From: Candidatus Omnitrophota bacterium
GTDB taxonomy: Bacteria > Omnitrophota > Omnitrophia > Omnitrophales > Aquincolibacteriaceae
DNA: 64,000 bases
Assembly (NCBI GenBank): GCA_903884815.1
Contig: CAISGE010000021.1
Coordinates: 448-64,447, forward strand
Reading direction: 5' to 3'
The notes under the pieces are model-generated. The model worked only from the letters and a program-made list of their open reading frames with translations, did not search any database and had not been told where the DNA came from. Positions 1 to 32,900 of the stretch are shown here, one piece after another; positions within the stretch are counted from its first letter, which is position 1; each line of letters begins with the position of its first letter. Position numbers and translations under genes: made by a program.

Positions 1-67
1 TCCGGAAGAAACGCCCATCACTGTTCAGCAACTTTCTCCGGCCTCTCTTGTAAGGTATGCCGAATAT

Positions 68-10330: not shown

Positions 10331-10442
10331 ACTTGGGAAATAGCCCCCAGGGGCCCGAAGAAAATAGCAGGTGGGGAACGTTCGCGATCAACGCGGGCGT
10401 TCCCTTTTCTCCGTTTCACTTAGCAAAAAAGGCGAGACGCTC

Positions 10443-11357: not shown

Positions 11358-11396
11358 TCAGCCACGAAGCACGTTTCTTCATGTTAGGAAAGTCCT

Positions 11397-12284: not shown

Positions 12285-12316
12285 TCATAACCAACCTGCG
12301 CACGAAGGAGACCCCC

Positions 12317-13306: not shown

Positions 13307-13380
13307 CAATTCAAGATCCGGGATCCGAATTTTTTGATCTTGAATCTGTTCGGACCGGCAAGGAAGGATAGAATCGAACG

Positions 13381-14253
13381 ATGATCCCCGCAACGCTTCT
13401 CAAAAAAGTCCGTAAGATCGAGATCCGGACCACGCGTCTCGTCAACGACCTCTTCGGCGGGGAGTATGAGTCGGTATTCAAGGGGCAGGGGATCGAGTTC
13501 GCCGACGTCCGGGAGTATGTCCCCGGCGACGATGTCCGCTCGATCGACTGGAACGTCACGGCAAGGACCGGCCACCCTTTCGTCAAAAAATTCGTCGAAA
13601 CCCGCGAGCTCACGGTATTTTTCCTAGTCGACATGTCCGGCTCGCAGTATTTCGGCTCCATTGACAAACTCAAATCCGAGATCGCGGCCGAAATCACCGC
13701 GATCCTCGCCTTTTCGGCTGTCAAGAATAACGACAAAACAGGACTCCTCATCGCGACGGAAGGCGTCGAAAAATTCATCCCCGTCAAGAAGGGGAGGAAC
13801 CACGCCCTCCGCGTCATTCGCGAGATCCTCGGCTATCAACCTCAGAAAAAGAAAACGAATCTTAAAGAAGCCATTGAATATCTTTACCGGGTCCAGACGC
13901 GTACCTCAGTCGTCTTTCTCATCTCGGATTTCATGGATGACGGCTATGAAAAGGCGCTGAAGATCCTCAGCCAGAAACACGATGTCGTCGCAATTCATCT
14001 GCATGATCCTCTGGAACAGCAACTCCCGAAGGTCGGACTCCTCGAACTCGTGGACCGGGAGACGGGGAAAACAATGTTAGTCGACACGTCCTCGCCTCAA
14101 TTCCAGAAACGGTTCCGCCAGACAACGGATCAAAAGCTCGCGGCCCTGGAAAAACTCTTCAAACGTCTTCAGATCGACCGCATTGACATTCCCGCGAACG
14201 CCTCGTATATCGAGCCTCTGTTCAAATTCTTCAAGAGCCGGGAGAAAAAATGA
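13381..14253 (+). CDS. DUF58-domain protein (MoxR-associated, VWA-like fold)
   Basis: 290 aa. DUF58 signature region (FKGQGIEFADVREYVPGDDVRSIDWNVTARTGHPFVKKFVE) followed by FLVDMSGS. Its stop overlaps the next start (ATGA). Confidence 0.85.
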   Translation: MIPATLLKKVRKIEIRTTRLVNDLFGGEYESVFKGQGIEFADVREYVPGDDVRSIDWNVTARTGHPFVKKFVETRELTVFFLVDMSGSQYFGSIDKLKSEIAAEITAILAFSAVKNNDKTGLLIATEGVEKFIPVKKGRNHALRVIREILGYQPQKKKTNLKEAIEYLYRVQTRTSVVFLISDFMDDGYEKALKILSQKHDVVAIHLHDPLEQQLPKVGLLELVDRETGKTMLVDTSSPQFQKRFRQTTDQKLAALEKLFKRLQIDRIDIPANASYIEPLFKFFKSREKK

Positions 14254-15200
14254 AAAAGCTCCTCGGCTTCGCGCTTCTTTTCTTCATTCTCTCAGGAGGT
14301 TGGGCGCTCGCCGCCGAAGCCGACGATATCCATGTTAAAGCGGAAGTCGACAAAGCCTTCCTCACGATCGGCGACCCGGTCACTTATACGGTCACGGTGG
14401 AACACTCGCCCGACATCCAGGTTCTCTCCAATTTTCCGGCGCCGGCTTCGGACGTCCTTGAGATCAAAAAAGTCGAGGACATTCACAGAAAACTGAAGAA
14501 GAAATCCATTGATGGACGAAAATTCATGCTCACGACCTACCGCCTCGGCGAATTCGTCCTCGACCCCGTAACGATCGAGTACCGCAAAGAGGGACAGGCC
14601 ATCAAAAAGGTACAAACCAACAAGCTCTACCTGACGGTCAAGAGCGTCGCGAGTGGAGAGAAACTGGAAGACATTCGGGACGTCAAATCCGTCATCCCAT
14701 TCAAATTCCGCATGGGAAAGTTCCTATGGACGCTTGTGGGCCTCTCCCTAGCCACGGCTGGCTTTTTCCTCTACCGTTTCCTCCGTAAACACAAGGCTCT
14801 GGCCCTGCCTCCAGCGCCGCCCCTCACGCCCGAGGAAGAGGCGCTGCTTCACCTGACGGAGCTTTTCGAATCAGACCTTCTCAAGCGCGCGTTTATAAAA
14901 CTGTATTACCTTCGGCTTTCGGAGATCCTGCGCGCTTACTTTGAAAAGCGTTACAAGATCCTTGCCGTGGAGTCCACCACAAGCGAGATCCTGCGCGCCA
15001 TCCGCCCGCTGCATCTTGAGCCCGGACTCTATCAAAAGATCCAGTACGTCCTGGAGTCCTCCGACCTCGCTAAATTTGCCAAGTGGGTCCCGACGCCCTC
15101 CGAAACGATACAGCTCAATAAGAAGGCTGAAGAGATCGTCCGGGAAGCAGCACCGGCTCCGGAGCCAGCACCCGTGGAGGAGGCCTCCCATGGTGTTTAG
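14250..15200 (+). CDS. Hypothetical exported membrane-anchored protein, paralog 3 (SP-beta-TM-alpha), Bat-cluster associated (BatD/DUF4381-like suspected)
   Basis: Signal peptide MKKLLGFALLFFILSGGWALA, a beta-rich domain, TM FLWTLVGLSLATAGFFLYRF and a C-terminal helical domain. Same architecture as the 10443 and 11397 gene products. Confidence 0.6.
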   Translation: MKKLLGFALLFFILSGGWALAAEADDIHVKAEVDKAFLTIGDPVTYTVTVEHSPDIQVLSNFPAPASDVLEIKKVEDIHRKLKKKSIDGRKFMLTTYRLGEFVLDPVTIEYRKEGQAIKKVQTNKLYLTVKSVASGEKLEDIRDVKSVIPFKFRMGKFLWTLVGLSLATAGFFLYRFLRKHKALALPPAPPLTPEEEALLHLTELFESDLLKRAFIKLYYLRLSEILRAYFEKRYKILAVESTTSEILRAIRPLHLEPGLYQKIQYVLESSDLAKFAKWVPTPSETIQLNKKAEEIVREAAPAPEPAPVEEASHGV

Positions 15201-16170
15201 GCATCCCGCGTTCTTTCTGCTTGTGTTCCTTTTGCCGCTCATCTTTATGTGGGCCCGTGGCCGCGAGAAGCTGGAATTCGCCTATTCTTCGGTGGATCTT
15301 CTAAAAGGCCGCCCGGCAACCACGCGGATGTTTCTCTGGAAGATGCTGCCACTCTTGCGCGCCCTCGTCTTCGTTCTGCTGATCGCGGCGCTTGCAAGAC
15401 CCTCGAGCGTTTCAAGCGACAGGGAATACCAGACCCATGGAGTCGACATCCTGATCGCACTGGATATTTCGGGATCCATGCTCGCCGAAGACTTCCAACC
15501 GGAGAACCGCGTTGCCGTCGCCAAGCAGGAAGCGATCAAGTTCATCAAAGGCCGTGAAAATGACCGGATCGGGCTCGTAGTCTTCTCGAAAAAGGCCTTC
15601 ACGCAGTGCCCTCTGACCCTGGATTACCGCATTTTGATTGAGCTTCTGGGTGAGATCCGTGTCGGCATGATCGCCGACGGTACCGCCATCGGCATGGGGA
15701 TCGCCACTGCCGTGAACCGCCTCCGCGACTCGAACGCCAAGAGCAAGGTCATCATTCTCCTAACGGACGGAGAGAATAACGCCGGGAATATCGACCCCAT
15801 CACGGCAGCGGAACTTGCCAAGAGCTTTGGCATCAAGGTCTACACGATCGGCATTGGACGGGGAGGGATGGTGCCGTTTCCGGTCGATGACCCGCTTTTC
15901 GGCAAGCGCTATGTGCAGGCCAACGTGGATATCGACGAGACCACTCTGAAGCGCATCGCCGACATCACTGGCGGCCTTTTCTTCCGGGCCCGCGACACCG
16001 CCGGACTCGCAGAGATCTACGAGCGCATCAACAAGCTTGAAAAAAGCGAGGTCAAGGTCAAGGAATACAAAAGCTTCAATGAACTCTTTCCGATCTTTCT
16101 CTTTCCGGCCATCTTACTGCTTTTCCTGGATATTTTTTTACGGCGCACGATTCTAATGAAAGTACCTTAA
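15190..16170 (+). CDS. batA: BatA-like VWA-domain membrane protein
   Basis: Start chosen at the ATG at 15190 (MVFRHPAFFLLVFLLPLIFMW), not the track's 14941 extension, which overlaps the previous gene in another frame. VWA MIDAS motif DILIALDISGSM, LLTDGENN, C-terminal TM FPIFLFPAILLLFL. Overlaps the upstream stop by 11 nt. Confidence 0.85.
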   Translation: MVFRHPAFFLLVFLLPLIFMWARGREKLEFAYSSVDLLKGRPATTRMFLWKMLPLLRALVFVLLIAALARPSSVSSDREYQTHGVDILIALDISGSMLAEDFQPENRVAVAKQEAIKFIKGRENDRIGLVVFSKKAFTQCPLTLDYRILIELLGEIRVGMIADGTAIGMGIATAVNRLRDSNAKSKVIILLTDGENNAGNIDPITAAELAKSFGIKVYTIGIGRGGMVPFPVDDPLFGKRYVQANVDIDETTLKRIADITGGLFFRARDTAGLAEIYERINKLEKSEVKVKEYKSFNELFPIFLFPAILLLFLDIFLRRTILMKVP

Positions 16171-18276
16171 ATGCAATTCTTTAAACCTGAAAATTTTCTA
16201 TATCTGTGGTTGGTTCCGGCGATCCTGGCGCTTTTTCTTCTTTCTCACAATCTCTGGAAAAAAAGGATGAGCCGCTTAGTTCAGGACGAAACCCTCTTGG
16301 CAAAGCTCGTCGCAGGCTACCGGAAAGGCGAGTGGCTCGTCCGCGCGATCCTCACCATGCTCGCCGTCCTTTGCTTTGTGCTCGCACTCGCGAGGCCTCA
16401 ATGGGGCGATGAAAAGCGAAGCGTCCAGCGTAAGGGCGTCGACCTCATCTTCCTTGTCGACACCTCGCTTTCCATGCTCGCAGAGGACATCAAACCCAAC
16501 CGCCTGGGAAAAGCCAAGTTCGAGATCGAGACCTTTATTCAAAATCTGAAGGGGGACCGCGTCGGTATGGTCACCTTCGCGGGATCGGGGTTCCTCCAGA
16601 CGCCGCTCACACTCGACCACGCGGCCTTCCTGCTCTTTCTGGACGCCGTTCAGGTCGGATTTCTGCCCGACCCCGGGACCTCACTGGTTCAGGCCATACA
16701 GTTGGCCCTACGGGCTTTCCCTCAAAAAGAGCTTAAATACAAAGCCCTGATCCTTTTCTCAGACGGGGAAGACCATGAAGGGAGCATCGAACAGGCCATT
16801 GAAGAGGCCAAAGAGGCCAATGTCCGCGTCTATACGATCGGCCTTGGGACCGCAGAAGGGGAGCCCATCCCCCTGAAGAATGAGAAAGGGGAGCGCCAGG
16901 GGTTCAAGAAGGACCGTAGCGGGCAGATGGTGCTTACAAAGCTCAATCAGCCACTCCTCGAGCGCCTCGCCAAAGAAACGGGCGGCATCTATCTTCCCGC
17001 CACCCCCGGCGAAAAGGAAGTCGATGTGATCCTGAAACATCTGCGCGGCTGGGGCGAGCAACAGTTTGAAGAAAAAATGGTGGTCGAGAGGGAAGACCAA
17101 TATCAGATCTTCCTCATCTTCGCCTTTATCTTCCTTGTCGCGGAAATGCTAGTCCGGCGCAAAGACCGTCCCAAGGCGGGCCTTCTTGTCTGTCTGGCGG
17201 CTTTTTTTCTTTTCACGGGCTTCCTGGAAACCTCCCAAGGCACAGTCAAAAAGGGCAACACCCAATTCGCGAAAAAACAATACCAGTCCGCACTCGACGC
17301 CTACCGCAAGGTGCAGGTGAAGAACCCGGACGCGCCAGAAGTACTTTACGATCTGGGAACCACGCTTTATAAAACTGATTCCTTCCAGGAGGCGGCCCAG
17401 AACTTGGAGACCGCCGCAGCCAAGGCGCAGGAACCTCCGACGAAGGCCAAAGCCCTTTACAATTATGGCAACGCCCAATACAGGCTTGGCAATTTTGAAA
17501 AGGCCATCGACTCCTACAAAAAAGCCCTCGCGATCGACCCCAACGACAAGGACGCCAAATACAATCTCGAATTCCTGCGGAATCAGAAAAACAAGATCGA
17601 CAAAAAAGATCAGGAAAAGAAAAAAGAAGATCAAAAAAAGGATCAAAATAAGGACCAGAATCAGCAGAAAAACCAACAGCAAAAACAAGACCAGAAGGAC
17701 CAACAAAAGGATCAACAAGGCCAAGGGCAGCAAGACCAGAAAAATCAGGGGCAAGGCCAAAAAGACAAGCAGGACCAGGGCGGCCAGGGGCAGCAGGACC
17801 AAAAAGACCAGAAGCAGGAACAGAAGGATAAGCAAGATCAGCAACAGAGCCAGGGACAGCAGGGTCAACAAGATCAACAGAAGCCTCAGGATCAGCAGCA
17901 AAGCCAGGGACAGCAAGGCAAGCAGGACCAAAAGGATCAGCAACAGCAGCCCAAACCCCAGGACCAGCAACAGAACCAGGGGCAACAGGGTGATCAGGAT
18001 AAAAAAGACCAGGGGCAACAAGGACAGGAGCAGCAAAAGCAAGACCAACAACAAGGTGATCAGCAGAAAGAACAACCGCAGCCAGGCCAGGAACAAAAAA
18101 AAGAAGGCGCTGAAAAAGACCACCAAGGCCAGGCCAAGCAGCCTCTTCAGGGCCAAATGAGCATGGACAATGCCTTAAACATTCTGGACGCGATGAAGGA
18201 ATCCGAAAAAGAGCTTCAGGACCTCCGCCGCCCGCCAGTCAACAAAAACCCGCCAGCGGTGGACAAAGATTGGTAG
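16171..18276 (+). CDS. batB: BatB/BatC-like fusion: N-terminal TM helices + VWA domain + TPR repeats + ~200-aa Q/D/K-rich low-complexity tail
   Basis: VWA motifs (DLIFLVDTSLSM, ILFSDGEDHEG, VYTIGLGT) and TPR-like repeats (ALYNYGNAQYRLGNFEKAIDSYKKALAIDPND). The ATG directly follows the batA stop. The tail is listed separately below. Confidence 0.85.
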   Translation: MQFFKPENFLYLWLVPAILALFLLSHNLWKKRMSRLVQDETLLAKLVAGYRKGEWLVRAILTMLAVLCFVLALARPQWGDEKRSVQRKGVDLIFLVDTSLSMLAEDIKPNRLGKAKFEIETFIQNLKGDRVGMVTFAGSGFLQTPLTLDHAAFLLFLDAVQVGFLPDPGTSLVQAIQLALRAFPQKELKYKALILFSDGEDHEGSIEQAIEEAKEANVRVYTIGLGTAEGEPIPLKNEKGERQGFKKDRSGQMVLTKLNQPLLERLAKETGGIYLPATPGEKEVDVILKHLRGWGEQQFEEKMVVEREDQYQIFLIFAFIFLVAEMLVRRKDRPKAGLLVCLAAFFLFTGFLETSQGTVKKGNTQFAKKQYQSALDAYRKVQVKNPDAPEVLYDLGTTLYKTDSFQEAAQNLETAAAKAQEPPTKAKALYNYGNAQYRLGNFEKAIDSYKKALAIDPNDKDAKYNLEFLRNQKNKIDKKDQEKKKEDQKKDQNKDQNQQKNQQQKQDQKDQQKDQQGQGQQDQKNQGQGQKDKQDQGGQGQQDQKDQKQEQKDKQDQQQSQGQQGQQDQQKPQDQQQSQGQQGKQDQKDQQQQPKPQDQQQNQGQQGDQDKKDQGQQGQEQQKQDQQQGDQQKEQPQPGQEQKKEGAEKDHQGQAKQPLQGQMSMDNALNILDAMKESEKELQDLRRPPVNKNPPAVDKDW
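17560..18150 (+). repeat. Low-complexity coding region: cryptic CAG/CAA/GAC/AAG repeats encoding a Q/D/K/G-rich, probably disordered tail of the BatB-like protein
   Basis: Translation KKDQEKKKEDQKKDQNKDQNQQKNQQQKQDQKDQQKDQQGQGQQDQKNQGQGQKDKQDQGGQGQQDQ... runs for ~200 aa. The opposite-strand and +1-frame ORFs 17149..18156 and 17465..18160 are artefacts of this repetitiveness. Confidence 0.9.
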
Positions 18277-18282
18277 ATACGC

Positions 18283-18335
18283 GGGTAACGGGAAACGGGA
18301 AAGCTTTATCGTTACCCGTTAGCCGTTCCCCGAGT
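18283..18335 (+). terminator. Candidate terminator hairpin after the batB-like gene
   Basis: cgggtaacg...cgttacccg is a perfect 9-bp inverted repeat (loop ~19 nt), followed by ttagccgttccccgagttttatttt with a T-rich tract, 7 nt after the TAG stop. Confidence 0.4.
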
Positions 18336-18385
18336 TTTATTTTATAAACTGTAAAGATGGTTTTATAACACAAAGGAGAAATGAC

Positions 18386-18832
18386 ATGAGCCTGATGGAA
18401 CAGATCGAAAAGGACGTAATCGACGCGATGCGGGCCAAGGATACGGTCAAGTTGTCGACGCTCCGGATGCTTAAAAGCGCTGTTGGCAACTATTTGATAC
18501 AGGCCAAAAAGGACAAAGCGGATGACGCCGAAGTCCTGAGCCTTATTGGCAAGCAGGCAAAACAGCGCCGTGAAAGTATTGATAGCTTTGAAAAAGCGGG
18601 CTGCAAAGAACTGGCGGATAAAGAGAAGAGCGAACTTATGATCCTGGAAGCGTATCTGCCCAAGCAACTCTCCGATGAAGAACTCAAGGCGGAAGTCCAG
18701 AAGGCCATCGCTGCATCCGGTGCCACTAGTGCTGCCGACATGGGAAAGCTCATGAAGGTTCTAATGCCCGCCATTCAGGGCAAGGCCGACGGCAAGCGCA
18801 TTCAGGAAGCCATCAAATCCATCCTAAAATAG
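18386..18832 (+). CDS. yqeY: GatB/YqeY-domain protein
   Basis: 148 aa; MSLMEQIEKDVIDAMRAKDTVKLSTLRMLKSAV...LPKQLSDEELKAEVQKAIAASGA is typical of the YqeY family. RBS AAAGGAGAAA. Confidence 0.85.
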   Translation: MSLMEQIEKDVIDAMRAKDTVKLSTLRMLKSAVGNYLIQAKKDKADDAEVLSLIGKQAKQRRESIDSFEKAGCKELADKEKSELMILEAYLPKQLSDEELKAEVQKAIAASGATSAADMGKLMKVLMPAIQGKADGKRIQEAIKSILK

Positions 18833-19076
18833 CCGCCAAAGCGGCGGTCTATCAGCCTCCTGAGATTCTCTAGGCTCTCCCTATAGATTACTTTACATAA
18901 GATACATTATAGGACGTTATATTGTTTAGAAAACAGTTCTCCCCCTGTAGAGATTAGTAGACCTTCTCAGAATGAAACTCAGTCACAACTCACCCTGACA
19001 CGCTATAACAAATATTTTTATCGACCTACGCAAAAAGCCGTTACAACAAAATCAAGAATCTCATATAATAAAAAAC

Positions 19077-20879
19077 ATGGGGAGAAAAAGCAGGCTAAAA
19101 GCGCATATCCGGCTAGACAAACATAAGAGCGATATTCATTCTGAGACATTGGAGCCACCGGGCGCGCCCTTCCCCTGGCCCCTCCTTTTCTGGCTGAGTG
19201 TCATCACCCTGATCCCTCTGGCACAGGTTACCACCTTCAGTTTCCTGAATTTCGACGACAGCCAATACATTCTCAAAAATCCCTTGGTCAGGACCGGCCT
19301 CTCCGGATTCAGCATTCAAGCGGCCTTTCTGTCAAGCTACGCCGCAAACTGGATTCCGCTCACATGGATCACGCTCATGGCTGAGGTAAATCTTTGGGGA
19401 TTCCACGCCGCGGGCTTCCACACAACCAATCTTTTTCTTCACATCTTGAGCGCGTCGCTTCTTTTCTTGTTCCTGGGCAAAGCAACCAAGCACTACGGCC
19501 GCAGCTTCTTCGTGGCCTGTTTTTTTGCGATCCACCCCATGCACGTTCAGTCCGTTGCCTGGATAACCGAGATCAAGGATGTCCTCAGCACGGCACTCGC
19601 GTTCACCGCCATTCTTTTTTATGTCCGAAAGCCCGGCCGCTTTAATCTTGGATGCTTCGCGTTCTACCTGTTAAGTCTTTTATCAAAACCGATGTTTGTC
19701 ACCATGCCTTTCATTCTATTGATACTGGATTTTTGGCCGCTGCAAAGATTGAATCTCTCGAACTCATGGAAGCGCGTGATTGAGAAAATCCCGTATTTGA
19801 TCGTGGCGTATTTCGTATCCAGACTGACCCTGTGGGCGCAGACTTCGGCAGGAGCCGTCCAAACATTCGAAGATCTATCCTTACCGCTGCGGCTCCAAAA
19901 CAGCGCGGCTGCCTGTGTGAGCTATATAGGAAAGCTATTCCTCCCGGCACGCCTATCCATCTTTTATCCTTACGCGCAACACATCTCTCCTTTGAGCACG
20001 ATAAGCTCCTGCGCCATTCTGGTTGCGATAACGGTCGCTTGCGTTCTCCTGCGGCGCGCAAAACCCTATCTTATTGCGGGCTGGCTCTTTTTTCTTGTCA
20101 CACTGACACCCGTGATTGGCATCATCCAGGTCGGATCCCAGGCCATGGCCGACCGCTACACCTATGTGCCCTATGTGGGGCTCTTCTGGATGTTATCATG
20201 GCTGTTATTTGATTTTTTTCAGGGCAAGTCGAGGGGCAAGCGAAATCTCCTCATCGCGGGAATCCTAATACTTCTTGTACTTACTCAGCGGACCTACGTC
20301 GAGGCAAAATACTGGAAAAACGGAACGGCACTTTTCCAGCGCGCCGTGGATATCAATCCCAACATTTCTCTGACCCAGTATCAACTGGGCGTGGCTTTTC
20401 ATGATGAGATGCTTTACAAGGAAGCCAAAAAACATCTCCAAAAAGCCCGGGAATTGAACCCGAAGGAACGGGAAATCCTCAATCAGTTGGGCCTCGTGTT
20501 TGTCAAAGAGAACAACCCTGCCGAGGCAGAATCTCTGTTCAAGAAAGCTATTGAAATGGATCCCGCTTACTTTATCGCTTATAACAATCTTGGCGCGCTT
20601 TATTGGAAACGAGACCCGACGCTTGCGCTAAAAGCATTCCAGAGAGCCGCCGAGATCAACCCTGACTACGACGAAGCGAACCATAATCTTTTGATGCTAT
20701 CCCTGCAGCGATGCTCCATTCAAACCGTCTGGCCCTTGATACCCCAGATGACGCGATTAGCACGAACCTATACCCCCATAAGAAAACCTCTTGATTTCCT
20801 GATCCACCTTCCGGGCAACACTCCTTTGGAAAAAGAAAACTCATGTGTTGACTCGAAATTCAAAAGAAATTCTCCTTAG
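19077..20879 (+). CDS. Polytopic membrane protein with C-terminal TPR repeats (TMTC/PMT-like or DUF1736-like glycosyltransferase-type architecture suspected)
   Basis: 600 aa with ~10 hydrophobic segments in the first ~400 aa, then TPR-like repeats (YQLGVAFHDEMLYKEAKKHLQKARELNPKE..., AYNNLGALYWKRDPTLALKAFQRAAEINPDY). Preceded by a 244-bp AT-rich intergenic region. Confidence 0.6.
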   Translation: MGRKSRLKAHIRLDKHKSDIHSETLEPPGAPFPWPLLFWLSVITLIPLAQVTTFSFLNFDDSQYILKNPLVRTGLSGFSIQAAFLSSYAANWIPLTWITLMAEVNLWGFHAAGFHTTNLFLHILSASLLFLFLGKATKHYGRSFFVACFFAIHPMHVQSVAWITEIKDVLSTALAFTAILFYVRKPGRFNLGCFAFYLLSLLSKPMFVTMPFILLILDFWPLQRLNLSNSWKRVIEKIPYLIVAYFVSRLTLWAQTSAGAVQTFEDLSLPLRLQNSAAACVSYIGKLFLPARLSIFYPYAQHISPLSTISSCAILVAITVACVLLRRAKPYLIAGWLFFLVTLTPVIGIIQVGSQAMADRYTYVPYVGLFWMLSWLLFDFFQGKSRGKRNLLIAGILILLVLTQRTYVEAKYWKNGTALFQRAVDINPNISLTQYQLGVAFHDEMLYKEAKKHLQKARELNPKEREILNQLGLVFVKENNPAEAESLFKKAIEMDPAYFIAYNNLGALYWKRDPTLALKAFQRAAEINPDYDEANHNLLMLSLQRCSIQTVWPLIPQMTRLARTYTPIRKPLDFLIHLPGNTPLEKENSCVDSKFKRNSP

Positions 20880-20999: not shown

Positions 21000-23900
21000 T
21001 TAGGCAGCAACCGCGACGGAATTCTGAGCTTCGAGAGCGTTGAGGACCGCCTGAATAAACTCATTCCGCAAACACTCCGCTATCGAGAAATAGCCCGTCT
21101 CTTTATTTGAAGCTTGCTTCATGAGGTCCTTGAACTGATCTTTGCCGATCGACGCCGCCAATTGCGAGATCGCAAAGATCCGCTCGCCCAATCTCTTGCC
21201 TTCCTTGTCACTGATCATGACAATGGCGCCCTTATCCATCAGGCGGTTCAACACTCCACGCGCGCGCACAGACGCCAGAAGCTTCGGATTGACCGTCAGG
21301 ATGCGATGCTCCATCGAAGCGCCGCTCTTGGCTTCCGCCAAAAGCTTCGCCTCAAGCGCTTCGAGGCCCTTCACTGAATGATAATCATTATTGACCCCCG
21401 GAATATTGAGCAAGCGCGGCTCGTCAATACCATAGACCATCGATCGAACATTCTCGATCAAGGCGTCCATGCCGGAACGGTATTCAATGGTCGCTTCCAG
21501 GATCTGCAGAGCTTTCTCGTAGGCAGCACTCTCTTTGGGAAGGTTTGCCAGCACGGTCAGAAGGAATTCCAATTCGTTAACGACGGCAGAATGGCGAGAT
21601 GTTCCCGCCGCCTGGTCAGCCGCCTTTAGGGACTCAATTGTTTCTCGGTAAGAATCTTTCTCGTCACCTCCGAGAGCGTGGCGCAATTCATGCCGCAACG
21701 CCGATTCCATCGCATCAAGAACCATCGCTTGATCCAGAGCTCCCGAAGCATTGAAGACATCCACGAATTTTTGAGAGAGTACGATCTGTTTCGTGGTCTC
21801 GGTCTCCATATAGAAAGCCGATTTCCCAAGCGGAACTTGCCCAATACGGACGGAGACGCCCCTCTCACGTTCAAGACGCTCCAAAGCGTTCCTCTGGATT
21901 GCCGGCATGGAACCTCGGACCGTCCGGAGCAATCCTTCGCTTGCCACCTGACGAAAGCGCTCCGCATACCTTCCGGCATTCTTGAATCCCCCAAGCGAAA
22001 GAGCCGCCGGATCCGCATCGACCGGCAAGCCGGCACCCGCCGATCGCAACTCCGTCCGTCCACCCATTTCAACTGATGCTGCTGGCATCTCAGACGTGAC
22101 AGACTCTGGTTCATTTGTGGCATTTTGTTGAGACTCTTGTTCTTCAAGCCGGGTTTTTACCCAGTCATGCTTTGAGAACACATCAAACACAAGGAATATT
22201 CCGATACTTATCGCGGCGCCGACAGGGCCCGTGGTGACAGTCGAGATTCCGGCAATGCCCGCATATTTAAGAAAGGTCCCCAAAATACCCTTAGCATCTC
22301 CGCGAAGGGCACGCCTGAACAGGGTGTCCTTCGACTTTCGGGTAAGGATGTCCTCGATAGGCGCAAGCAACGCAATCGGAGCAAAAAGGCCGCTCAACGG
22401 AATAAGGAACGGCAGTACCTGGTATCCATACTGTATAGCGGCTGTCTTCTTCCAGGAACTCGGCTTAGCGGTCACAGGCCGCTCCTTCATAAGCCCAGTC
22501 GCCGAGCTCGACTGAGATTCGGCAGAGGGAATACCCGTGCGCTTTTCCGCGCGCACCGCAACAGGCCCCGCCGGCTGAGCAGCGGCAGCATTCGCGGCCA
22601 TGCGCAATTCCGGGCGCCCTGAACCGGCCGCAGGCGCTGGCGGCGGGAGTGCGGCCATTGAAGCCTGGGACAAGTTATCAACAAGGGATTTCAGGGTCCC
22701 GGCCATTTGATTAAGTTCATGGATATTCGTCGACTCAAATCCCCGCAAGTGCGCGTAGTAGCCGCTAAAGACATTAAAAACAGCCTCGATCTCGTTCCCC
22801 GTGGATTTATCCGCGTCAAATTGTCCCGTCTGAATATTGAAGCGGCGGATATGGTAGAAATCCCCATTGCTGTTCTCAGACATTTCGCCTTTGTGCGCAT
22901 CATCCTGAGCGCCCGACGTTTTCCCGTCAATCAGGATACCCTGCGTGCCCAGGACCCGAGCCGTGACATCTTTGTATTGAGCTGCGCTGCCGGGAGCCGC
23001 CACATCAATATAATGCTCGATATTTTGGGAGGGCATAAAGCCTTCTCCCGTAGACTCGATCTTCTCATAAGCCGGTTCTCCGTCATCGCCGACCGTCACT
23101 CGCTCGCTCGCAGCGCCGCGGCCATAATCATCCTCTGTTTTTTCAGTCTGATTCTGGCGGTCCGCAGAATAAACGCGCCGCACCCCCGTCAGAACATTTT
23201 TCAGCATCTGATTGAAGGGTTTACTTTGTACCGCGTGAAGGACGCCAAGCCCGACTTCTTCCCCCGTCGTCACAAGAAGACGGATCTCGCCTTCGTGCTT
23301 CGGCTCCCGGACTAAGGCGATGATCGTGCTCAGGATTATGGCGAGACCGGCCCGGTTATCGGCTCCGAGAGCCGAAAGCGGGTCTTTGGCGCGAATATTC
23401 CCGAAAGCGTCTATCGTTGCCTCAAGATCAGTCGCAACCTCGGGACGTACGTCCACGTGAGCTATGTGCAGGACGGGATCCTCTGTCGTATCGGGATTCT
23501 TCGCCGCGATCCTCACGGCCAATCCCTTGCCCGGAATCTGCTCGATCGCGTACTGATCCGAGGTGAGACCGGCGCTTGCGAGAAGCCCCACGAGGAGACT
23601 CCTTGTTTGATCCAACGCCAACCCCTCATCACGGATAGAAACCTTCGAAGGATCCAGGAGTTGGCTCAGGATGGCTTGCACCGATGATTCGTCATGGACA
23701 CCGTCCGTCAGCTTGATCGGCTGATAATCCGCGACATTATGAACAAGACCGAATTCCTGATAAAGAGCACCACGCAAGGCGTTCAGAGCAATAGCGGAAG
23801 CATCGCCGGCTTCCGGATGAGCGTTCAGATAGCTAACAAGTTTCTCATAGCCCTTCCCCGTATGGGCGCGCAGCGCACGTTCGATCAGACGGGCCTTGGC

Positions 23901-26900
23901 CCGGCCCTGTTCCTGGAGATCCATTTGCTCGGCCTGGGGCTTCAACGCTTCCGATGCGAGGAGCTCGTCTATCAGTTTCTCGGCATCCGCCTTCGCCTTA
24001 CCCAAGGTGATCGAACCGTTAGGCATCAATTGATCGCTCAAGGCATGAACGATGAGGTCGTCCGTGAGATCGTTCTGTTGCAATTGATCGGCAGTCAAAT
24101 CATCCAGCAGGACGAGATCGGCGGCGTTCGTTATATACTTTCCGAACCGGACGGCCTGAGATCCATGAAGCAGATACAGCCGGAAGAATGACCGGAATGA
24201 CGCCTTCATGATTTCCGAGCTGAAGTTATGACCCCGGGCGTAACTTTCGAGTTTCCTGTCGATCCCTTCCCAGTTATAGGTATGTCCGTGTTCCCGGTCC
24301 TGCAACTGCTCGATGATCTGGCCGAAGAAGTTAAAAACTTCCTCCATCATGATCATGCCATGTGAATCGCTCCGCGAGTACAGGTATGGGCGGGGTTGCG
24401 TGACATGCTTATATTCGTGTTGCGGCGACTGTTTCCACCAGTAATCGGCGCAATAGACCATCCCCGTTGACGTGAACCAGTTGGGACGCCCCTTGCCATC
24501 TCTCGCAATTTTGTATTCATGGGCCACCGTCGCTTCCGCACCCGTCGACTGAACCCAGTTATTCTTCATAAAGTCATAATATTCACCTATCTCCTGGACG
24601 ATATCTTCGGCAACATTAAAAACGGGCACCCCCATGTTGGTGTATCCATGCTTCGACATCCATAGGTCCATCCGCTCTTGATCCGATAGACCTGCGTCTT
24701 CCGGCAGGTTCGCCGTGGCGGGGATTGCCATGGAGGTTCCCAAACCGTCCGATTTCTCGACACGGCCCGTGGTCGGATCAAAACGGGCAACCCCGAAAAA
24801 GATCTTCCCTTCCCTCATTTTCGATTCGATGAAATCGACGAATTTAGCACGGCGAGCCGGATCGATCTGAAGCCGGTGACTCCCGTTCTCGTTATTTTCC
24901 ATCGTGAACACGTAGTATTCGGCCATCGACCGATAATCGCCCTTGGCGGTAGCTTCTCTTATAAACGCGCCGAAATCTTCGACCCCACGCAAATGCCTTG
25001 CGGTTGATAAAAGGTCCAAGGCAGAAAGTCTTTGCGCCGTATCGTTCGTGAGTACTTCCGAAGTGACAGTCCCGTCGCGGCCCATACGCTTGGCCGACAA
25101 GCCGCTTTCCGTCGCGCGTTTCAGGAATAGTTCATAGGCTTTGGCATAGGCCTTAATCTGCTCCAGCGCTTCCTGGGCCTTCTTTCCCGCAGACTTGTAT
25201 TCATTGAGCTTATCATTGGAAACCGATCGCTTCGCCTGGGTGATCGTCGCGGGAAGCAGAATCATGATCTTTTCCATGAGCGGCACAATATCCTGGAGGT
25301 CGGTCATTCGACCCGGAGTGCGATTGGCCTCAGACAGAGGATCCAGCAATTCAGAAAGTTGCTGTCTCAGCATCATGAGTTCATTGTCACCGATGTCGAT
25401 CTTCTGCAGGGACTTCAGGAAAGCCTGGATCAGCCCATAACTTGATTGCTGCAAAAGAATATCTCTTTCTTTCTCATCGAATTCGCCATCGGTTTGGATC
25501 AACCGGATAGCCGATCTTGCGAAATCGGCGCCTTGAATGAAGTGATCAAAACCGGCCAACCGGGCCGATTCCATGAGCCGGATCATCGCTTCATAACGAT
25601 CCGAAGAGCTCATAACTGCAAGCATATCCGCCCGAGCCTTCTCGTTCGCGTTTTTGAGATCCTCCGCGAAAGCTACTTTTTGGGCTTCGATAATGGCGAT
25701 CAAGGCGCTGTCTTGCACGGGATCGAGCCGGCTGATCAGATGGTTCAGCATGCTGACATCGTCGACAGGAGGATTCCCCTGATCGCGCGCTTCGATCATC
25801 TGATCCACGATCTCCATGAACCGGTCTGCCGACGGCTCCTGTTGCGACAAAGCGCTGCGATAGACCGGCAAAAGAGCCCGCGAAGCGGCAAATTCGGTCG
25901 AGTACGCCGAGATCTTAAGCCAATCGTCGAGCAGTAGTCTCTTTCCCGGATCTGGGATCTGGGCGATATTCTTAAGCTCCTCCAGAGAGAAAAATATTTC
26001 GTTCAGCCGAATCCCGGGAACACCGTTGTTTTCCACGAGCCGCGCATCGGCCAGCAACACCTTGCGTCCGTCCGGGCTCATCACAGGCGCGAAACTTTTG
26101 CCGTCCGGCTGGCGGGTATAAAGCACCGGCCCGACATCGCGCGTATGCTGGTTAATGTTATCAAAGAGGAAGACATCCTGAACTGCCCCGTCGACTATAT
26201 TGAGATCGGCAAATCCACCCTCATGGTTCGCGCCGCCGCTTGAGAGCTTCAGCACGTCTCCGTCGAAAGCGACAGAGAGTGCGGTCACGAGATCATGACG
26301 CTGGAATTCCATCGCACGACCGAATTCATCCAGAATTCCGGCCAAGACCACGCGACTTCCGTCCACCATTGCCGAAACTCCCGATCCGGCCTCAATGCGG
26401 ACCTTATCCGGGCTGAAAAACACCTTTACCCCTCGCCCTCGGTTCGTCTCGGCGATCCACTGTCCGCCGTGGAATTCAAAATTCGTAACCTGCTGACCCG
26501 AGAGATTGACAAGGGGCGCGCCGGTATGACTCACGATCTGATTTCCGTTTAGAATGAACCGCTCCTTCATTTTTATTTTCGCTTCGGCCGCCAAGGCGGA
26601 AGGGGTCAGTCCGGACGTCAGAGTCAGACCTTTCAAATTAAGGAAAAGATCTTCCGAGTTTGAGAAAACAGCACCTTGCGCCTGCAGATCCATCAGAAAT
26701 TTATCGACTTTGTTTCCATCCGTCAAACCGAGCCGGACCAGAAGTTCAGCATCCCGGAGCGATTTGAGATTAAACGCTATACCCCCGTCGAGCATGATCG
26801 AACTGGCCTGAAGATCCAGCCAAAGGTTCGCCGCCTTTGCCGCCGTCTGAAACGCGTCCGTTTGGCTCCAATCCGTGTCACGCCACAACTCGAAGATCTG

Positions 26901-29900
26901 GCTCACGCTCAACCTGTCCTCTCCCGCGAAGGCCTTCACAAAATGCAGCTGGTTTAAAAAATCACCGAGTCTCGGCCGGATCACCAAATTGATGTCCTTC
27001 AGGATATCGGCTTCGACCCGTGCAAGATTGCCCTGGACACGGGCCGCGGCAATGGCCTGCCGGTGAACTCGCATTTGATTCTGCGACGGGGCAAGTTCCG
27101 CAGCAAGGGCAAGGACCCGGCTCATCACGAGTGCGGCGGGATTGGAATACTGGCCGGAGGGACCGGAAATCCTGATCTTCTTAGTGGGATCCGCCGGGTC
27201 TGTTACCTCAAAGCCAGTACAATCCAGGAAATCAAAGAGTTCGTCCGCGCTCATACCAATTCGGGACACACCGATGATCGTCGCGGCCTGCGACACAACA
27301 TCGCGGACTTCGGTTCGCCGCTCCGTGGAGGACGTGCCCGCCCGGTCGACCCCGCTTGCCAGCACCGAAAGAGCGAGGGCCTGCCGGAGAGCGCCCTTGA
27401 AAACACCCTCGGAGAGCTGCTGATAAGAAGCAAGCGGCATCCTCCGGAGCACCTGATAGAACGCCAGGGGATCAATCACTTCACCCCACTGATCCGCTTC
27501 CGCACTACTGAATCCGGCCTTTTTAAAGACCTGCCCCGTGATCATGGATTGTTCGGACAAGGTTACAAGCTTCGAAAGCTGCTCGGGCTCCATTTGTTGC
27601 AGAGCGTCCAAAACCGTGCCGCTCAGGTTCAGATTCTTGGCAAGGACCGCGCGCCGCTTGGCCTGCTGGGCACCGCCCGGCAACGCCAGCATTTCGGACA
27701 CGATCAGATCCCAGACCTTGACAGCTCCCCCGCGCGGGAGGGCGCCACGAAGCTCCGTGATATCTTCAGTGGTTAGACCATAGCCCAGCAACTGATGATA
27801 GATAGTCAAATAGGATTTCCAATTATCGAAACCGGTATCGCCGAGAAGAGATTTCAGCCAGCTTGCCTGAGACTCAAGATGCGACTTCATCTCGTCTTCA
27901 TAATTCACGCTAAACACAACGCGCCCGGCCTGGAACCTGGCCTTCAGGAGGGAGTTGTTTGTGAGCAGTTGGCGGAGATTCGCGTCCTGAATCTTCGCAA
28001 CATCAATCTTTATCCCCGCGACATTCACAGTTCGGATTTTTGTTGTATTATCTGTCTGAACGGGCGCCTTATACTCACCATTCAGGGTCTCAAGCATCGC
28101 CCTGTCTTTGTCGGGAGTCCCCTCGGTAAGCTCCGACGCCTGCACGGTAACTTCGCTCGCCCGCCTCGATGCGTCTAGACCGGCCCGGGCACCTATCCCG
28201 CTCAATTCCGGCGCGAACTCGACGGCAAAACCCAGAGCAATAGCGATCATCGTGTCCGCCCGGGACGCCACATCGGTTTTAAAGCTGAGATTCCCGAAAA
28301 ACTCCCCTTCATACTGGCGCCGCCGCTGCGCTTGATTGATCGCCTCAAACTCAACACCCGCCCGTTCGATCACAGTACCGGCTGTCTCCACGGCCTCCTG
28401 GAGAGACCGCCTCACGGGTTCGCTTAGCTCTTTTCCGGCTCCCTTCGTGAGAAAGTTGTTAAGTTGATCTTTCGCCGTTTTCGCTCTTGAGCGGACAAGG
28501 CTGTTCACCGAATGAGGTCCGGAAACATAATCGTCGCCCCGTTCCATATCATAATCGCTGCCGTAATGGCGCATCAGTTCAATATTGAATTCACAAAGGA
28601 TCTCGCGCTCCTTGACGCCCTGGGCGCCCTGCGTAAAATTCGCCCGGAACATCGCGTCGCGCATCGGGTTGAACATGAGTGCGAAATCCATGAGCTGGCC
28701 GGTAAGGGAACGCGCTGTCGCGTCCGCCGCGTGGGCGCTGTTCAGCGCGTAGCTGAGGAGGAACTGCTCTTCCTTCGACAATTTCTCCCACTGCCCCTCA
28801 TGCACATTCCGCAGCCGGTCAAGAAGCTCGACGATGTTCTTCGGTCCGTTCTCGCCCAATTTATTCCCATACTCGTAGGCTTTTCCTGCGGGTGTATCCA
28901 TCCGCTCAAGAAAAAATTTGCGCCATCCGTCAATAGCCTTGAAATCAGAGAACACACTCATTTGGCTCTCAAGAAAATCCTGATTCTGATAGACCACAAT
29001 ATCCGCGTCATAGCGATCCTTGTCGCCAAACTTCACTTCATTGACAGGCTTAAGCGTTTCCGACAGAAAACTACTCCCCTCCTCTGTCACCCGATCCGCC
29101 GCAGACCGATCACTTGAAAGAATCTCGCTCAGTTTTCTCCCGTCCTGTCCTTTTCCCAAGGCAGTTTTGAGCGCGGCACTATAGGTCTCCCAATATTTTG
29201 AATTAATCTGATCAGCAAGATCTTGGGACGTTCCCCAGAGCCCCGATTTCCCTTCCGCGTAAGCCGAGACCATCGCTTCAAAAACCTCGTGCATGGCGAT
29301 CGTACGGCCAATACGGCCTTGGTTCTGAATCAACATAACGGAGGTGATCTCCGGCGTGAACCCGGCATAAAGCATATTTTCACGCTGATAATCGAAACCG
29401 ATCAGCGCGTGCTGGGCCGCCAAAACGATTTTCTCCTCGCTCCCCTGGTTGAACTTATCAACAGAGGGCTTGACGCTCTGCTGGCTTTCATAGGTTCCGT
29501 CGATCACAACGATCTGGTCCACCTTGATTTTCTCTTTTACCAATTCCGCTTTAACCAGGTCGATCATCGTATCCGTCGAAAAGCCCGACAGAACCGACCG
29601 CCGTCCCTCTTTAAACGCTGCGATTAGCTCTCGAGCGATAAAGTTGGCTTCCGCTTCCTGTGACTTGAAACTCGAAGGTTTCCAAGACTTGAGCTCGAAT
29701 GATTTCTTGGCTTGTCCCGGTCCGCGCGTCTTCTGAGAAAGAAGTTCATGGATATAAGCATCCGCGAACTGTCCACCCTTTCCGAAGATAACTTCCGTAT
29801 TCCGGCCGGCGATCATTTTCGCCTGCATGCTCACTTCCGCCACAGTGCCCGACATTCCGTAAGCGGCAGAAACCCCGCCAAAAAGCATAAAGATATCGGC

Positions 29901-32900
29901 CATGCTGGAAGCCGTGAGCGTATTCGTCATCTCGATGTTTTTGGCGCTCCCGCGGATCTGGGCAAGATCCAACGACTCGTAGCGGTTCGCCTTTCCGGCG
30001 GCCTTCAGGACCTGCGTCTCAGTCTTATACCCGGCCTCCTTCGACCCCTTGATGCCGAGACCGGCCAATTCATGGGCCAAACCGACATCATTGAGTTTAT
30101 AGCTGATCGTGATCAAACCGACGGTATCCGAAATGATCTGGGTATCCGCCTGCTTTCCGTCAGAACCCATGGGACGGTATTGATCCCCGACCCCTTTCCG
30201 GATCCTCCCCACGATACCCCGCTCAACCATTTCCGCGGTACGCATCGCCTGGTATTTCAAGATGGACTGGAGCTCTGAGGTGAAGATCGAAAGATCCTCA
30301 AGCTTCTCGCTCCTGTCATTCACCGGGATCGACTCGTTCTCGGCATCATAGATCTTGTTATAGCGTTCTTTTAGCGCGTCCGCTGCGCGGCCCCGCTTGA
30401 AGAACTGTCCGACTTGTGTCGAGGACTTCCGTATCTCGTACCGGGACGAATCAAAGAGAATAACCGCCCTCTGGTCGCCGTACTGCTTAAAATACTTTCC
30501 GCTCTCAGTCACAATGATGTGATCGCTCCAGCTCAGATTGGACTGATCCACGACATTATCGAAGCGGTCCATGAGAACGCCGTCCTTTTCCCAAAGCATG
30601 ATACTCTTGTCGCCCTTCATGGCCGGATCCACGAAAAGTTCGTTGTAGGCGCAGTACACATGAAAATAGCGCAGCTCGGTGGCTTTCATCGTATCGCCGC
30701 CGAGGATAAAATAAGTCGGATCCACAATGCGGTGGATCTCGTCCATATTGCGGACTGAACTTTGGAACACCTTGGAGAATTCCTGGTACTTGGCAAGCTC
30801 CGTCGACCGGAAATGCGTCATCAGATGGCCGAGGGTGGTATAACTCACGGCCAGCACCTCGCGGGCCTGATTTCCGTCTTGACTGAGAATGCTGAGCAAT
30901 CGCTGATAAGCTGCTTCGCGGCCAGACTCGGGGCCTTTGGTGATGGCTTCGATCAATTTCTCCCCATTAACCAGCTCAATGCCCAAAGCGTTGGCGAGTT
31001 TTTCAGCCGGAGACTTCTTTTGATTCGGCTCAGCAACAATACGCCCGACCGCCTGCTCACTTTCAGTGATATGGACATTCGCGCCAAAAATGAAATCAAA
31101 GGTCGCCATAAGGAAGGTCTTCCCGCCACCTACGGCTACGTTCACATTCGAGCCCAAAAGTCCTTCCAGAATGGCGCACATTTGCTCGTGCAAAAGTTTG
31201 ATGCCTCTGGCGCTGAAGACGAGCGCCGCGGTACGGAGCATCGTTTCGTGGGCCTTGAAGCCTCCCATGCTTGAGAAGAAATCCTTGAGCGAGGGCTCGG
31301 CCTTTGCGTCGCGAACGGTTTTTTCCATGAATGCGAAAATACGGGCATAGCTCTCAAATCCCCCGCCGCCTTCCGCCGCACATCGCGGCGCAAGATAACT
31401 CTCGAGGAATCGATTGAATTCCGGTTCGGAGAGTCCCACCGTCTTTGCAGATTTCTTTGCACTCCCGAAAGCGGTGTCGAGAATTCCCACTGCCGCCTGC
31501 CGGACCATGGTATCGGGGTCTAACAACTCCGAAATCAGACTGGGTTGCGCCTCATCGACGGGATAGGCCTGGTTTTTTATGTTCTTCAAAAACATGGCGT
31601 GAATAGCCGTCAGTTCGGTAACGAGGGTATCGAGGTTCGGGGCTTTATCAATCGCGTTAAACTTCTCGACGCCGTGGGTGAGTACAAAATAATACGCCGC
31701 GCTGGCAGCTCTCTCCACAGCCGCCGTCTCAATGGGAGAATTTTCAAGACTCGTCTTCCATGACCGCACCGGATCACTTGCAAGCCAGTCATTTACCGTT
31801 TGAACCCGTTGGCGCACAAAAAACTCGACAAGGACTGGATTGCTGACGCGCGGACTGGTGCCGTTCTTAAAAATCAGTTTGCCGTCACTTTCCGTCTGAA
31901 GCACCAATTTCCCATTTTCAACGACAAAAGAAACGTCGCCGCCGTAACGCCTGATCTCCGGAGCCAGGTAAAAACGCATGATCTCGAGGGCGACAGATGT
32001 CGCAAAGCTATTTTTCAAAAGGGCTTCTTTCCCCTCGAATTTTCCTTTGAGATCCAGCAACTGCTCCGCCACTTTTACCAGCGAGTCTACCTGGCTCAGC
32101 CATGGGTTATGAGCCTGGACCTTTTCAGCCTGATGGCGGAGAGCCTCGAACGCGGCGGCCTTTTCAGGATCGGCATCAATTCCCGTGACGCCCAGAGTAT
32201 TCATGAAAACCGCGATCTGGACATGTGAGTTGGTCTCGGCAAGCTTCGTGATCAAAGACTCAAGCAGCGTCCCTTTATACCCCCCGTCAAGCACCGCGTT
32301 TCCGAGCGCTCTCGCAAACGCGCCGTTCTTGTCCAACCCACTGATCACCTGAAAAAGATGATCGGCCGTTTCCACAGAAAGGATCAAAGGCGCCTTCTCC
32401 CCGTCGATCCCGAAAACAACCCTTGCGACCTGTCCTTCGGCATACTGACTCGCCGGGATATTCCGGAAAGCGTCAAAAAGCGCCTTGACCTGCTCCTTCA
32501 CCCCGATCGACGTGCGCATGTCCATGCGCCGCGCGCTTTCGCGCAGAATGGCAAAACGCCCGATAGCGTCCAGCCCTTCAAGACTCCGGCCGGAGCGCAC
32601 CGAAAAGATCCCTCCGTGAGTTTCAATGATAGATCTCAAGATCGACTCAGAGGGACTCAATTTACTGATCAAAAGGTCCAAAACATTATTCCCGTCGATC
32701 GTGACACTGTGGCCATCGAGAGTGGACAAGTCATTCAATATCGTCATGAACCGGTCGCCTTCTCCTGCACGGACAGCATCAACGTAGATAGTTAAAAGAC
32801 CCCGTGATACCGAAGCGTCGGACGAATACCGGGAGATGTTAATCCAGGAATCTAGCAATTTTCTTTTACCCGAACCAACTTCGATCGTGTCAGGATTCCT

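Follow-up and report, generated by a model that had tools for sequence, protein, structure and literature searches.

Giant genes are a known peculiarity of the Omnitrophota, and in the passages retrieved from the two preprints that describe them (bioRxiv 10.1101/2023.11.21.568195 and 10.64898/2026.06.07.730766) their products are portrayed with C39 and S8 peptidases, glycosyl hydrolases, SecA-type domains and dockerins. Here we describe one such protein, encoded in a window of 64,000 nucleotides (Candidatus Omnitrophota bacterium, assembly GCA_903884815.1, contig CAISGE010000021.1, positions 448 to 64,447), by which we mean the whole stretch of DNA that was analysed. A single uninterrupted open reading frame (ORF) on the minus strand (window 21000-59090, GTG start) specifies 12,696 amino acids (aa), and we hold it to be probable, though by no means certain, that the last ~1,250 residues form a conserved module with an intact-looking M20 peptidase domain and two HExxH domains, acting as a cytoplasmic proteolytic cassette. 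This module is rare and, with its HELRH and HEYKH motifs, its linker motif and its ...AA end, appears undescribed. Term searches of the two preprint texts returned neither M20 nor zincin, no HExxH in the 2023 text and no metallo- in the 2026 text, and the returned passages contained nothing resembling the C-terminal module.

The M20 peptidases belong to the MH clan, in which a dinuclear site is built from two His, a bridging Asp, two terminal carboxylates and a general-base Glu (PMC4320195). A preliminary description of the sequence had reported three strings typical of this clan, HIAHVDV, GADNRAG and TTGEEVGLG, and about 500 aa later an HELRH motif. All four strings were found on the minus strand, in frame and within the one ORF, with HELRH 526 aa past the EE motif, and the MH-clan assignment was confirmed by Pfam, NCBIfam, PDB profiles and AlphaFold2 (AF2) modelling with Foldseek. 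On the evidence of profiles and the predicted model, the HxD/GADN/EE segment is a real M20 domain nearest to peptidase T (PepT), and its motif set is not a product of chance. Among the Pfam models, M42 (PF05343) matched at E 9.8e-6 and was the only one above its own gathering score (25.3 against 23.2 bits), followed by M28 (E 4.4e-4) and M20 (E 1.8e-3). The NCBIfam PepT-like model TIGR01883 gave 7e-8 for the query domain and 1e-13 for its homologue P0005, and the PepT model 2.8e-7 for the query domain. A phmmer search of the PDB sequences matched the query domain to PepT-type tripeptidases, and a profile of the six-sequence family reached 1.2e-15 for the tripeptidase 3rza and 2.5e-14 for the PepT 3gb0. 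When the family was aligned to E. coli PepT by hhalign, the probability was 96%, with only the N-terminal half aligned, and BLASTP of the C-terminal halves was uninformative; the fifth metal ligand was placed by hidden Markov model and multiple sequence alignment (MSA), not by these two programs. The AF2 model built on the family alignment (predicted local distance difference test, pLDDT, 75.9; predicted template modelling score, pTM, 0.83) had 172 PDB matches at E<=0.001 in Foldseek, with the DapE catalytic domain on top (2.7e-9) and PepT, SGAP (S. griseus aminopeptidase) and CPG2 also among them, at 1e-9 to 1e-6. The alpha/beta catalytic fold of the MH clan is present in this predicted structure, and the domain belongs, as a divergent member, to a well-known family; what is unusual is its host protein.

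The active site was compared in an MSA of 10 sequences of which six come from giant proteins, three from free-standing peptidases and one is E. coli PepT. In 10/10 sequences H, D, D, E, E, D and H fall on PepT positions 78, 80, 140, 173, 174, 196 and 379, where for H78, D140, E173/E174, D196 and H379 we assume the customary PepT numbering, which agrees with the motifs in the profile alignment. The metal ligands beyond the three strings, including the C-terminal His, were located as D11977 and H12114, the context of the latter (NVFSGYYAHLRGFE) mirroring that of PepT (NLFTGGYNYHGKHEF), and none of the six giant-protein M20 domains deviates at any of the five ligands or at the general base. The preliminary description had taken the second Asp of the GADD motif to be a metal ligand replaced by Asn. 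The residue is literally an Asn, and the DN pair is invariant among the giant-protein family, but the position is not a metal ligand: in the PDB alignments, the D of GADN falls on the first D of PepT GADDKAG (D140), which is the bridging Asp and is kept, and the N falls on D141, while DapE (7uoi) reads D-M where the giant protein has D-N. A search of metagenomes with the pattern SALG[AST]DNR returned free-standing proteins of 424-446 aa (ORF lengths) with SALGADNRSG on metagenome contigs (loci L090-L095), and two of three distinct types, which were scanned (L092 and L093), are full-length PepT-like M20 proteins with TIGR01883 matches of 6e-48 and 3e-51. By these alignments, the embedded domain has its nearest ordinary relatives, and possibly its donors, in the free-standing PepT-like proteins, and the Asn in GADN is a normal variant of the PepT-like subfamily, not a lost ligand. 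A motif-level call of a ligand mutation can err if the ligand register is merely assumed.

PepT and the PepT-like tripeptidases (MEROPS M20B; TIGR01883; PDB 3rza, 3gb0, 1fno) gave the best sequence and profile matches and have the same catalytic alpha/beta fold, with H-x-D, bridging D, E-E, D and H in the same order and N-x-F-x-G-G-x-x-x-H-x-x-x-E around the last His. The embedded domain differs from them in its placement within a 12,696-aa protein, in being at most ~30% identical to known members, in a shorter insert at the lid position and in reading DN instead of DD from the bridging position onwards, the DN being common to some free-standing PepT-like proteins. DapE, ArgE and CPG2 (M20A) and the M28 enzymes (SGAP, AAP) share the clan fold and the (mu-aquo)(mu-carboxylato) two-metal scheme (PMC4320195), with lower sequence scores than PepT. 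The fourth ligand is Asp here, as in PepT and M28, whereas it is Glu in DapE and CPG2. The M42 family (TET/FrvX) had the best Pfam score, but structural and profile matches favour M20. The TET/FrvX enzymes carry a PDZ-like domain of ~100 residues between the His of HxD and the bridging Asp, and an M42 architecture was rejected for the domain described here, in which only 33 residues from H11878 to D11911 leave no room for such an insertion. The D-N-R-x-G context is one that we take to be M42-like.

HExxH occurs twice in the 12,696 aa, against ~0.09 occurrences expected from composition, and both copies are conserved in homologues; by this measure, the occurrences are not by chance. The copy nearer to the C-terminus, HELRH, belongs to the last ~340 residues, which are common to fifteen relatives at 15-44% identity. 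In an alignment of 15 sequences, the only invariant columns of this region are the H, E and H of HExxH and the final Ala, the Glu at the catalytic position being kept as strictly as both His. The AF2 model of the region (pLDDT 85.4, pTM 0.68) has three strands (aa 12412-12439), the HELRH helix (aa 12451-12472), a tight turn, a helix from E12477 and more helices, after which a separate alpha/beta domain follows. The zincin-like character suggested for HELRH gained support: the motif is conserved and its predicted helix comes behind a beta-sheet, an arrangement known from zincins. The coiled coil considered as an alternative does not appear in this model of sheet, then helix. A Glu in ExxxY (E12477, Y12481) stands 6-17 residues past the second His in most members, not all, with variable spacing, and is the best candidate for the third ligand, while the metzincin signature HExxHxxGxxH/D is not conserved, as the Gly at +3 here (HELRHALGG) is S, P or Q in relatives and there is no conserved His or Asp at +6.

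Pfam searches with the 15 members returned SprT-like in 3/15 (best E 0.0036), M48 in 2 and single weak others, and the weak matches of the HELRH domain are nearly all to zincins, namely SprT-like, M48, DUF6782, SPRTN, IrrE and lethal factor. The PDB profile search with this domain gave nothing relevant, and the compact local Foldseek matches were SPRTN (E 0.16) and IrrE (E 0.2), with a probability of 0.92 each, as well as several SprT-like proteins, M48 and lethal factor. Motif conservation and the predicted layout, not homology, suggest that the HELRH domain is probably a minimal zincin whose family is undescribed. Like the minimal zincins (SprT-like/SPRTN, IrrE/ImmA M78, M48/DUF45), it would have an HExxH helix behind a small beta-sheet, followed by a helix able to carry the third ligand. 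It differs from them in the likely third ligand, a Glu in ExxxY here and a His in SprT/Wss1, in the fusion to the C-terminal alpha/beta domain with the ...AA end, and in that no match to them was significant. The autoprocessing or toxin-protease role proposed for it in the preliminary description is a possible one. The protein and all its relatives share a final A without exception, with A or S before it, and the tail typically reads Q-x-V-x-x-A-A. Such an ...AA end resembles ssrA-type degradation tags and the ligands of C-terminal-binding domains.

The other copy, HEYKH, precedes the M20 domain and is conserved in ten relatives, with an invariant G-A-E before it and a P and E-E-V after it, the EEV 21 residues later; the region around it may form another zincin-like domain that is as yet undescribed. 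What lies between the two HExxH domains varies: six sequences have M20 there and two relatives (P0009 and P0010) a GNAT acetyltransferase, and in P0006, P0010 and P0012 a segment with an HNHP...PSLxDxNAD string resembles the JAB/RadC motif at the motif level only, with no support from Pfam. The linker between the M20 and HELRH domains contains R-x-E-L-R, which matches three times in the giant protein against 0.16 expected, two of these matches lying in the Pro/Ala-rich linker. In 14/15 relatives a motif R-[STAP]-E-[LMIVA]-[RKH] is found 83-249 aa (mostly 105-157) upstream of the last HExxH. R-x-E-L-R might serve for cleavage or for recognition. A role as the general site at which a polyprotein is cut was rejected, with only three copies in the protein. 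In the giant protein, a hydrophobic-hairpin insertion of ~180 residues, absent from all relatives, is flanked by RPELR and RTELR.

These relatives came from an exhaustive HMMER search with the last 1,200 aa as query, which found 18 among 1.84 billion representatives. The M20 domain is present in five of the 18, at roughly 30-58% identity, and the same C-terminal module occurs in proteins of 4,772-7,157 aa. Short homologues were rejected as independent small proteins, being fragments of giant genes. A word-index protein search yielded no match for the M20 segment or for the C-terminal alignment, and when the C-terminal 916 aa were run against GTDB genomes, no relative emerged.

Upstream of the module, at a distance of ~1,600-2,200 residues, superfamily 2 (SF2) motifs (GxGKT, DEIH, SGT and QxxGRxGR; aa 9321-9929) mark a region resembling SF2/SecA-type ATPases. 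Pfam gave no direct match for this region of the giant protein, SecA included, and only marginal SNF2 matches were seen, while the part of the relative P0012 that aligns to it matches Pfam Helicase_C and another relative, P0011, carries the SecA P-loop and preprotein-binding domain. Further upstream lies a cluster of about five hydrophobic, transmembrane-like segments, similar to clusters far upstream of the module in homologues, and by hydropathy there is no hydrophobic segment from aa 8034 to aa 12225, a profile that the relatives repeat. Together with a signal- or anchor-like N-terminal segment (aa 20-40, window 58971-59033, from hydropathy), the cluster suggests a protein with ~7,600 aa outside and ~4,600 aa inside the cell. 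GNAT and SecA-type domains need acetyl-CoA or ATP. Because ATPase, GNAT and SecA-type domains require cytoplasmic cofactors and no hydrophobic segment intervenes, we place the ~4,600 residues past the cluster, and with them the C-terminal module, probably in the cytoplasm. The assertion that the peptidase domain lies in a secreted part of the protein is doubtful for the same reason, with no hydrophobic segment between it and the invariant SF2 motifs.

The 'Archaeovorins' and their relatives (West-Roberts et al. 2023 preprint; 2026 preprint), as presented in the retrieved passages, resemble the protein in belonging to the same phylum, exceeding 10,000 aa, carrying transmembrane clusters, being mostly unannotatable and having SecA/SF2-type ATPase domains after the membrane segments. 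They differ in the SecA domain, which is not detectable by Pfam in the giant protein described here, where the SF2 motifs are invariant and a SecA P-loop is found in P0011. A functional analogy, and only that, may be drawn to FtsH, in which a membrane anchor, a cytoplasmic ATPase and an HExxH domain follow each other on one chain. There is no homology, the ATPase is SF2-like here and not AAA+, and ATPase and HExxH are ~1,600 residues apart; coupling between them would be conjectural.

In the proposed arrangement, the module would run from the HEYKH...EEV domain through the PepT-like M20 domain, the Pro/Ala-rich R-x-E-L-R linker and the HELRH...ExxxY domain to the alpha/beta domain with its ...AA end, on the cytoplasmic side and past the transmembrane cluster and the ATPase-like region. 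Polypeptide chains would be cleaved by an endopeptidase activity of one HExxH domain or of both, and the short products would then be trimmed from their N-terminal ends by the M20 domain as an exopeptidase. The giant protein itself could be the substrate, during maturation or turnover, with the R-x-E-L-R linker as a place where it might be cut; alternatively, the module could act on chains that the ATPase handles. Several points weigh against this picture. For the M20 domain, the Pfam M20 match, at 18.6 bits, does not reach the gathering score of 24.6, and all NCBIfam scores fall far short of the trusted cut-offs that apply to named equivalogs. Between ligands four and five, the insert has 137 residues compared with 183 in PepT and is modelled at the lid position as three strands and a helix, partly of low confidence and not confidently alignable; substrate specificity is not readable from it, and the activity could differ from that of PepT. 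The HELRH domain has no significant match to a zincin family in Pfam, PDB profiles or Foldseek, where its model found no PDB or BFVD match at E<=0.001, and the alignment does not pin down its third ligand, while the HEYKH domain has no Pfam or PDB match. Cleavage at R-x-E-L-R is pure conjecture, and the cytoplasmic placement rests on hydropathy peaks and the cofactor logic of neighbouring domains.

The main rival explanation, which we consider unlikely, holds that the module is exported as a prey-directed effector, in which M20 cleaves peptidoglycan or peptides and HELRH is a toxin or a releasing protease. It would accord with the signal-like N-terminus, with the very large region free of hydrophobic segments and with the predatory lifestyle proposed for the Omnitrophota, whose giant proteins are linked to predation and cell-wall attack in passages of one preprint (bioRxiv 10.1101/2023.11.21.568195). 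The topology argument nevertheless disfavours it, as the module appears past the transmembrane cluster and the invariant SF2 motifs with no hydrophobic segment between, and the same stretch of homologues contains GNAT and SecA-type domains that depend on acetyl-CoA or ATP; the module is also conserved, not polymorphic, unlike toxin tips. Also in favour of the rival, some enzymes of the clan, such as M28 and CPG2, act outside the cytoplasm.

Two narrower alternatives concern the enzymatic nature of the domains. That HELRH plays a structural or metal-binding part in a helical domain without proteolytic activity, leaving M20 as the sole enzyme of the pair, strikes us as quite improbable: the lack of any zincin that matches significantly in sequence or fold and the variable third ligand would fit, but H, E and H are the sole invariant residues besides the last Ala, the Glu is as strict as both His, the predicted layout is like that of small zincins and the weak matches are almost all zincins. 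Least credible in our judgement, and very improbable, is the reading of the M20-like domain as an inactivated scaffold or pseudo-enzyme in which a ligand Asp became Asn, which the preliminary description had raised and which draws on GADN in place of the GADD of PepT and CPG2 and on the low scores to curated M20 models. It has no basis because the Asn stands one place after the bridging Asp and is no ligand, and because active M20 enzymes and free-standing PepT-like proteins have D (PepT), M (DapE) or N at this position. Since all catalytic residues, five ligands and the general base, are strictly conserved at ~30% overall identity, which is not expected of a dead domain, we argue for an active enzyme, and the M20 domain looks like a working exopeptidase.

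As the only enzymatic domain seen by standard profiles in the giant protein, M20 gives experiments on one class of Omnitrophota giants a place to start. If the cassette processes the giant chain, it bears on the open question, raised by those who described the giant genes, of whether giants exist as single chains or polyproteins. Self-cleavage by C39 and S8 domains is raised in the retrieved passages of one preprint (10.1101/2023.11.21.568195); here, it would be by different enzymes. A bolder proposal, which we offer tentatively and regard as rather unlikely, is that the succession of zincin, variable enzyme (M20, GNAT or JAB-like motif), R-x-E-L-R, zincin and alpha/beta domain with ...AA end after an SF2/SecA-type ATPase defines an undescribed class of giant Omnitrophota membrane proteins. 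Their tail, in the cytoplasm, would be an ATP-linked, self-contained proteolytic machine that cuts the precursor at the linker or degrades chains delivered to it. Recognition would go through the ssrA-like ...AA as a handle, and the HExxH domains would found new metallopeptidase families.

Table 1 Features of the giant protein and its surroundings, with positions in the window and residues of the respective protein.
Feature	Window	Residues (aa)	Strand	Basis or remark
PepT-like M20 (MH-clan) dinuclear metallopeptidase domain	22641-23603	~11830-12150	minus	Pfam, NCBIfam, PDB profile, AF2
HIAHVDV	23448-23468	11875-11881	minus	read from sequence
H11878-V-D11880, first His ligand and HxD Asp	23451-23459		minus	PepT H78/D80; invariant 10/10
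GADNRAG	23346-23366	11909-11915	minus	read from sequence
D11911, bridging metal ligand, then N11912, non-ligand	23355-23360		minus	D, PepT D140; N, PepT D141/DapE Met
TTGEEVGLG	23244-23270	11941-11949	minus	read from sequence
E11944, general base, and E11945, ligand	23256-23261		minus	PepT E173/E174; invariant
D11977, fourth metal ligand (VYSADRQ)	23160-23162		minus	PepT D196, D of 3gb0 'ALDSD'; invariant
H12114, fifth metal ligand (NVFSGYYAHLRGFE)	22749-22751		minus	PepT H379 (NLFTGGYNYHGKHEF), profile and MSA; invariant
HExxH domain 2, 'zincin-like'	21456-21893	~12400-12545	minus	conservation, AF2
AMESALRHELRHALGG (holds HELRH)	21666-21713	12460-12475	minus	read from sequence
HELRH	21678-21692		minus	invariant H, E, H
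E12477, candidate third ligand, in ExxxY	21660-21662		minus	alignment
C-terminal alpha/beta domain, end ...SVAVAA-COOH	21003-21440	~12551-12696	minus	alignment, AF2
Last 7 aa, ...NSVAVAA	21003-21023		minus	sequence
HExxH domain 1	24051-24773	~11440-11680	minus	conservation
HEYKH	24405-24419	11558-11562	minus	~320 residues ahead of M20 domain
RPELR, linker motif copy 1	22602-22616	12159-12163	minus	motif search
RTELR, linker motif copy 2	22044-22058	12345-12349	minus	122 aa before HELRH
Two hydrophobic segments, hairpin-like insertion	22176-22418	12225-12243 and 12287-12305	minus	hydropathy
SF2/SecA-type ATPase-like region	29211-31163	~9310-9960	minus	motifs invariant in 5 homologues
SF2 motifs GGGKTF; MDEIH; GMSGT; QNQGRIGR		9321; 9449; 9745; 9922	minus	alignment
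Cluster of ~5 hydrophobic, transmembrane-like segments	34989-36038	7685-8034	minus	hydropathy
Complete Bat-type operon	10371-20879		plus	stops 120 bp from giant-gene stop codon, convergent
Second very large gene	2-8077		plus	runs past window start; at least 2,691 aa here

Apart from the C-terminal M20-type domain, the Pfam scan of the giant protein found no domain except a single weak RHS repeat match (aa 1529-1561) whose 18.6 bits (E 0.0025) do not reach the gathering cut-off. More than 12,000 residues are without a significant match to anything. The protein is non-repetitive except for two internal duplications (aa 2619-2964 with 2765-3124, and aa 8683-8830 with 10991-11142) at 34-35% identity. 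The second very large gene is 2,803 aa long in another assembly; its product contains an inositol-monophosphatase-like domain and ends in ...TAHSA; as a relative of the C-terminal module it was rejected, the two having no similarity.

The flanks of the giant ORF are ordinary chromosomal genes, with dnaK, a Bat-type operon (including MoxR, DUF58 and BatA-D-like genes), yqeY, def, an AsmA-like gene and the gene for a CCA-adding enzyme. The operon reads, in order, two BatD-like genes, a MoxR AAA+ gene, a DUF58 gene, an ORF of 316 aa that has no assignment, VWA/BatA, VWA-TPR and TPR, and yqeY sits between the last two of these. The exact sequence of the DnaK encoded near the giant ORF turns up in metagenome assemblies only, and the species has no entry among the GTDB representatives. 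This DnaK is 92-93% identical to those of many Candidatus Omnitrophota metagenome-assembled genomes, compared with at most 68% for the next phyla.

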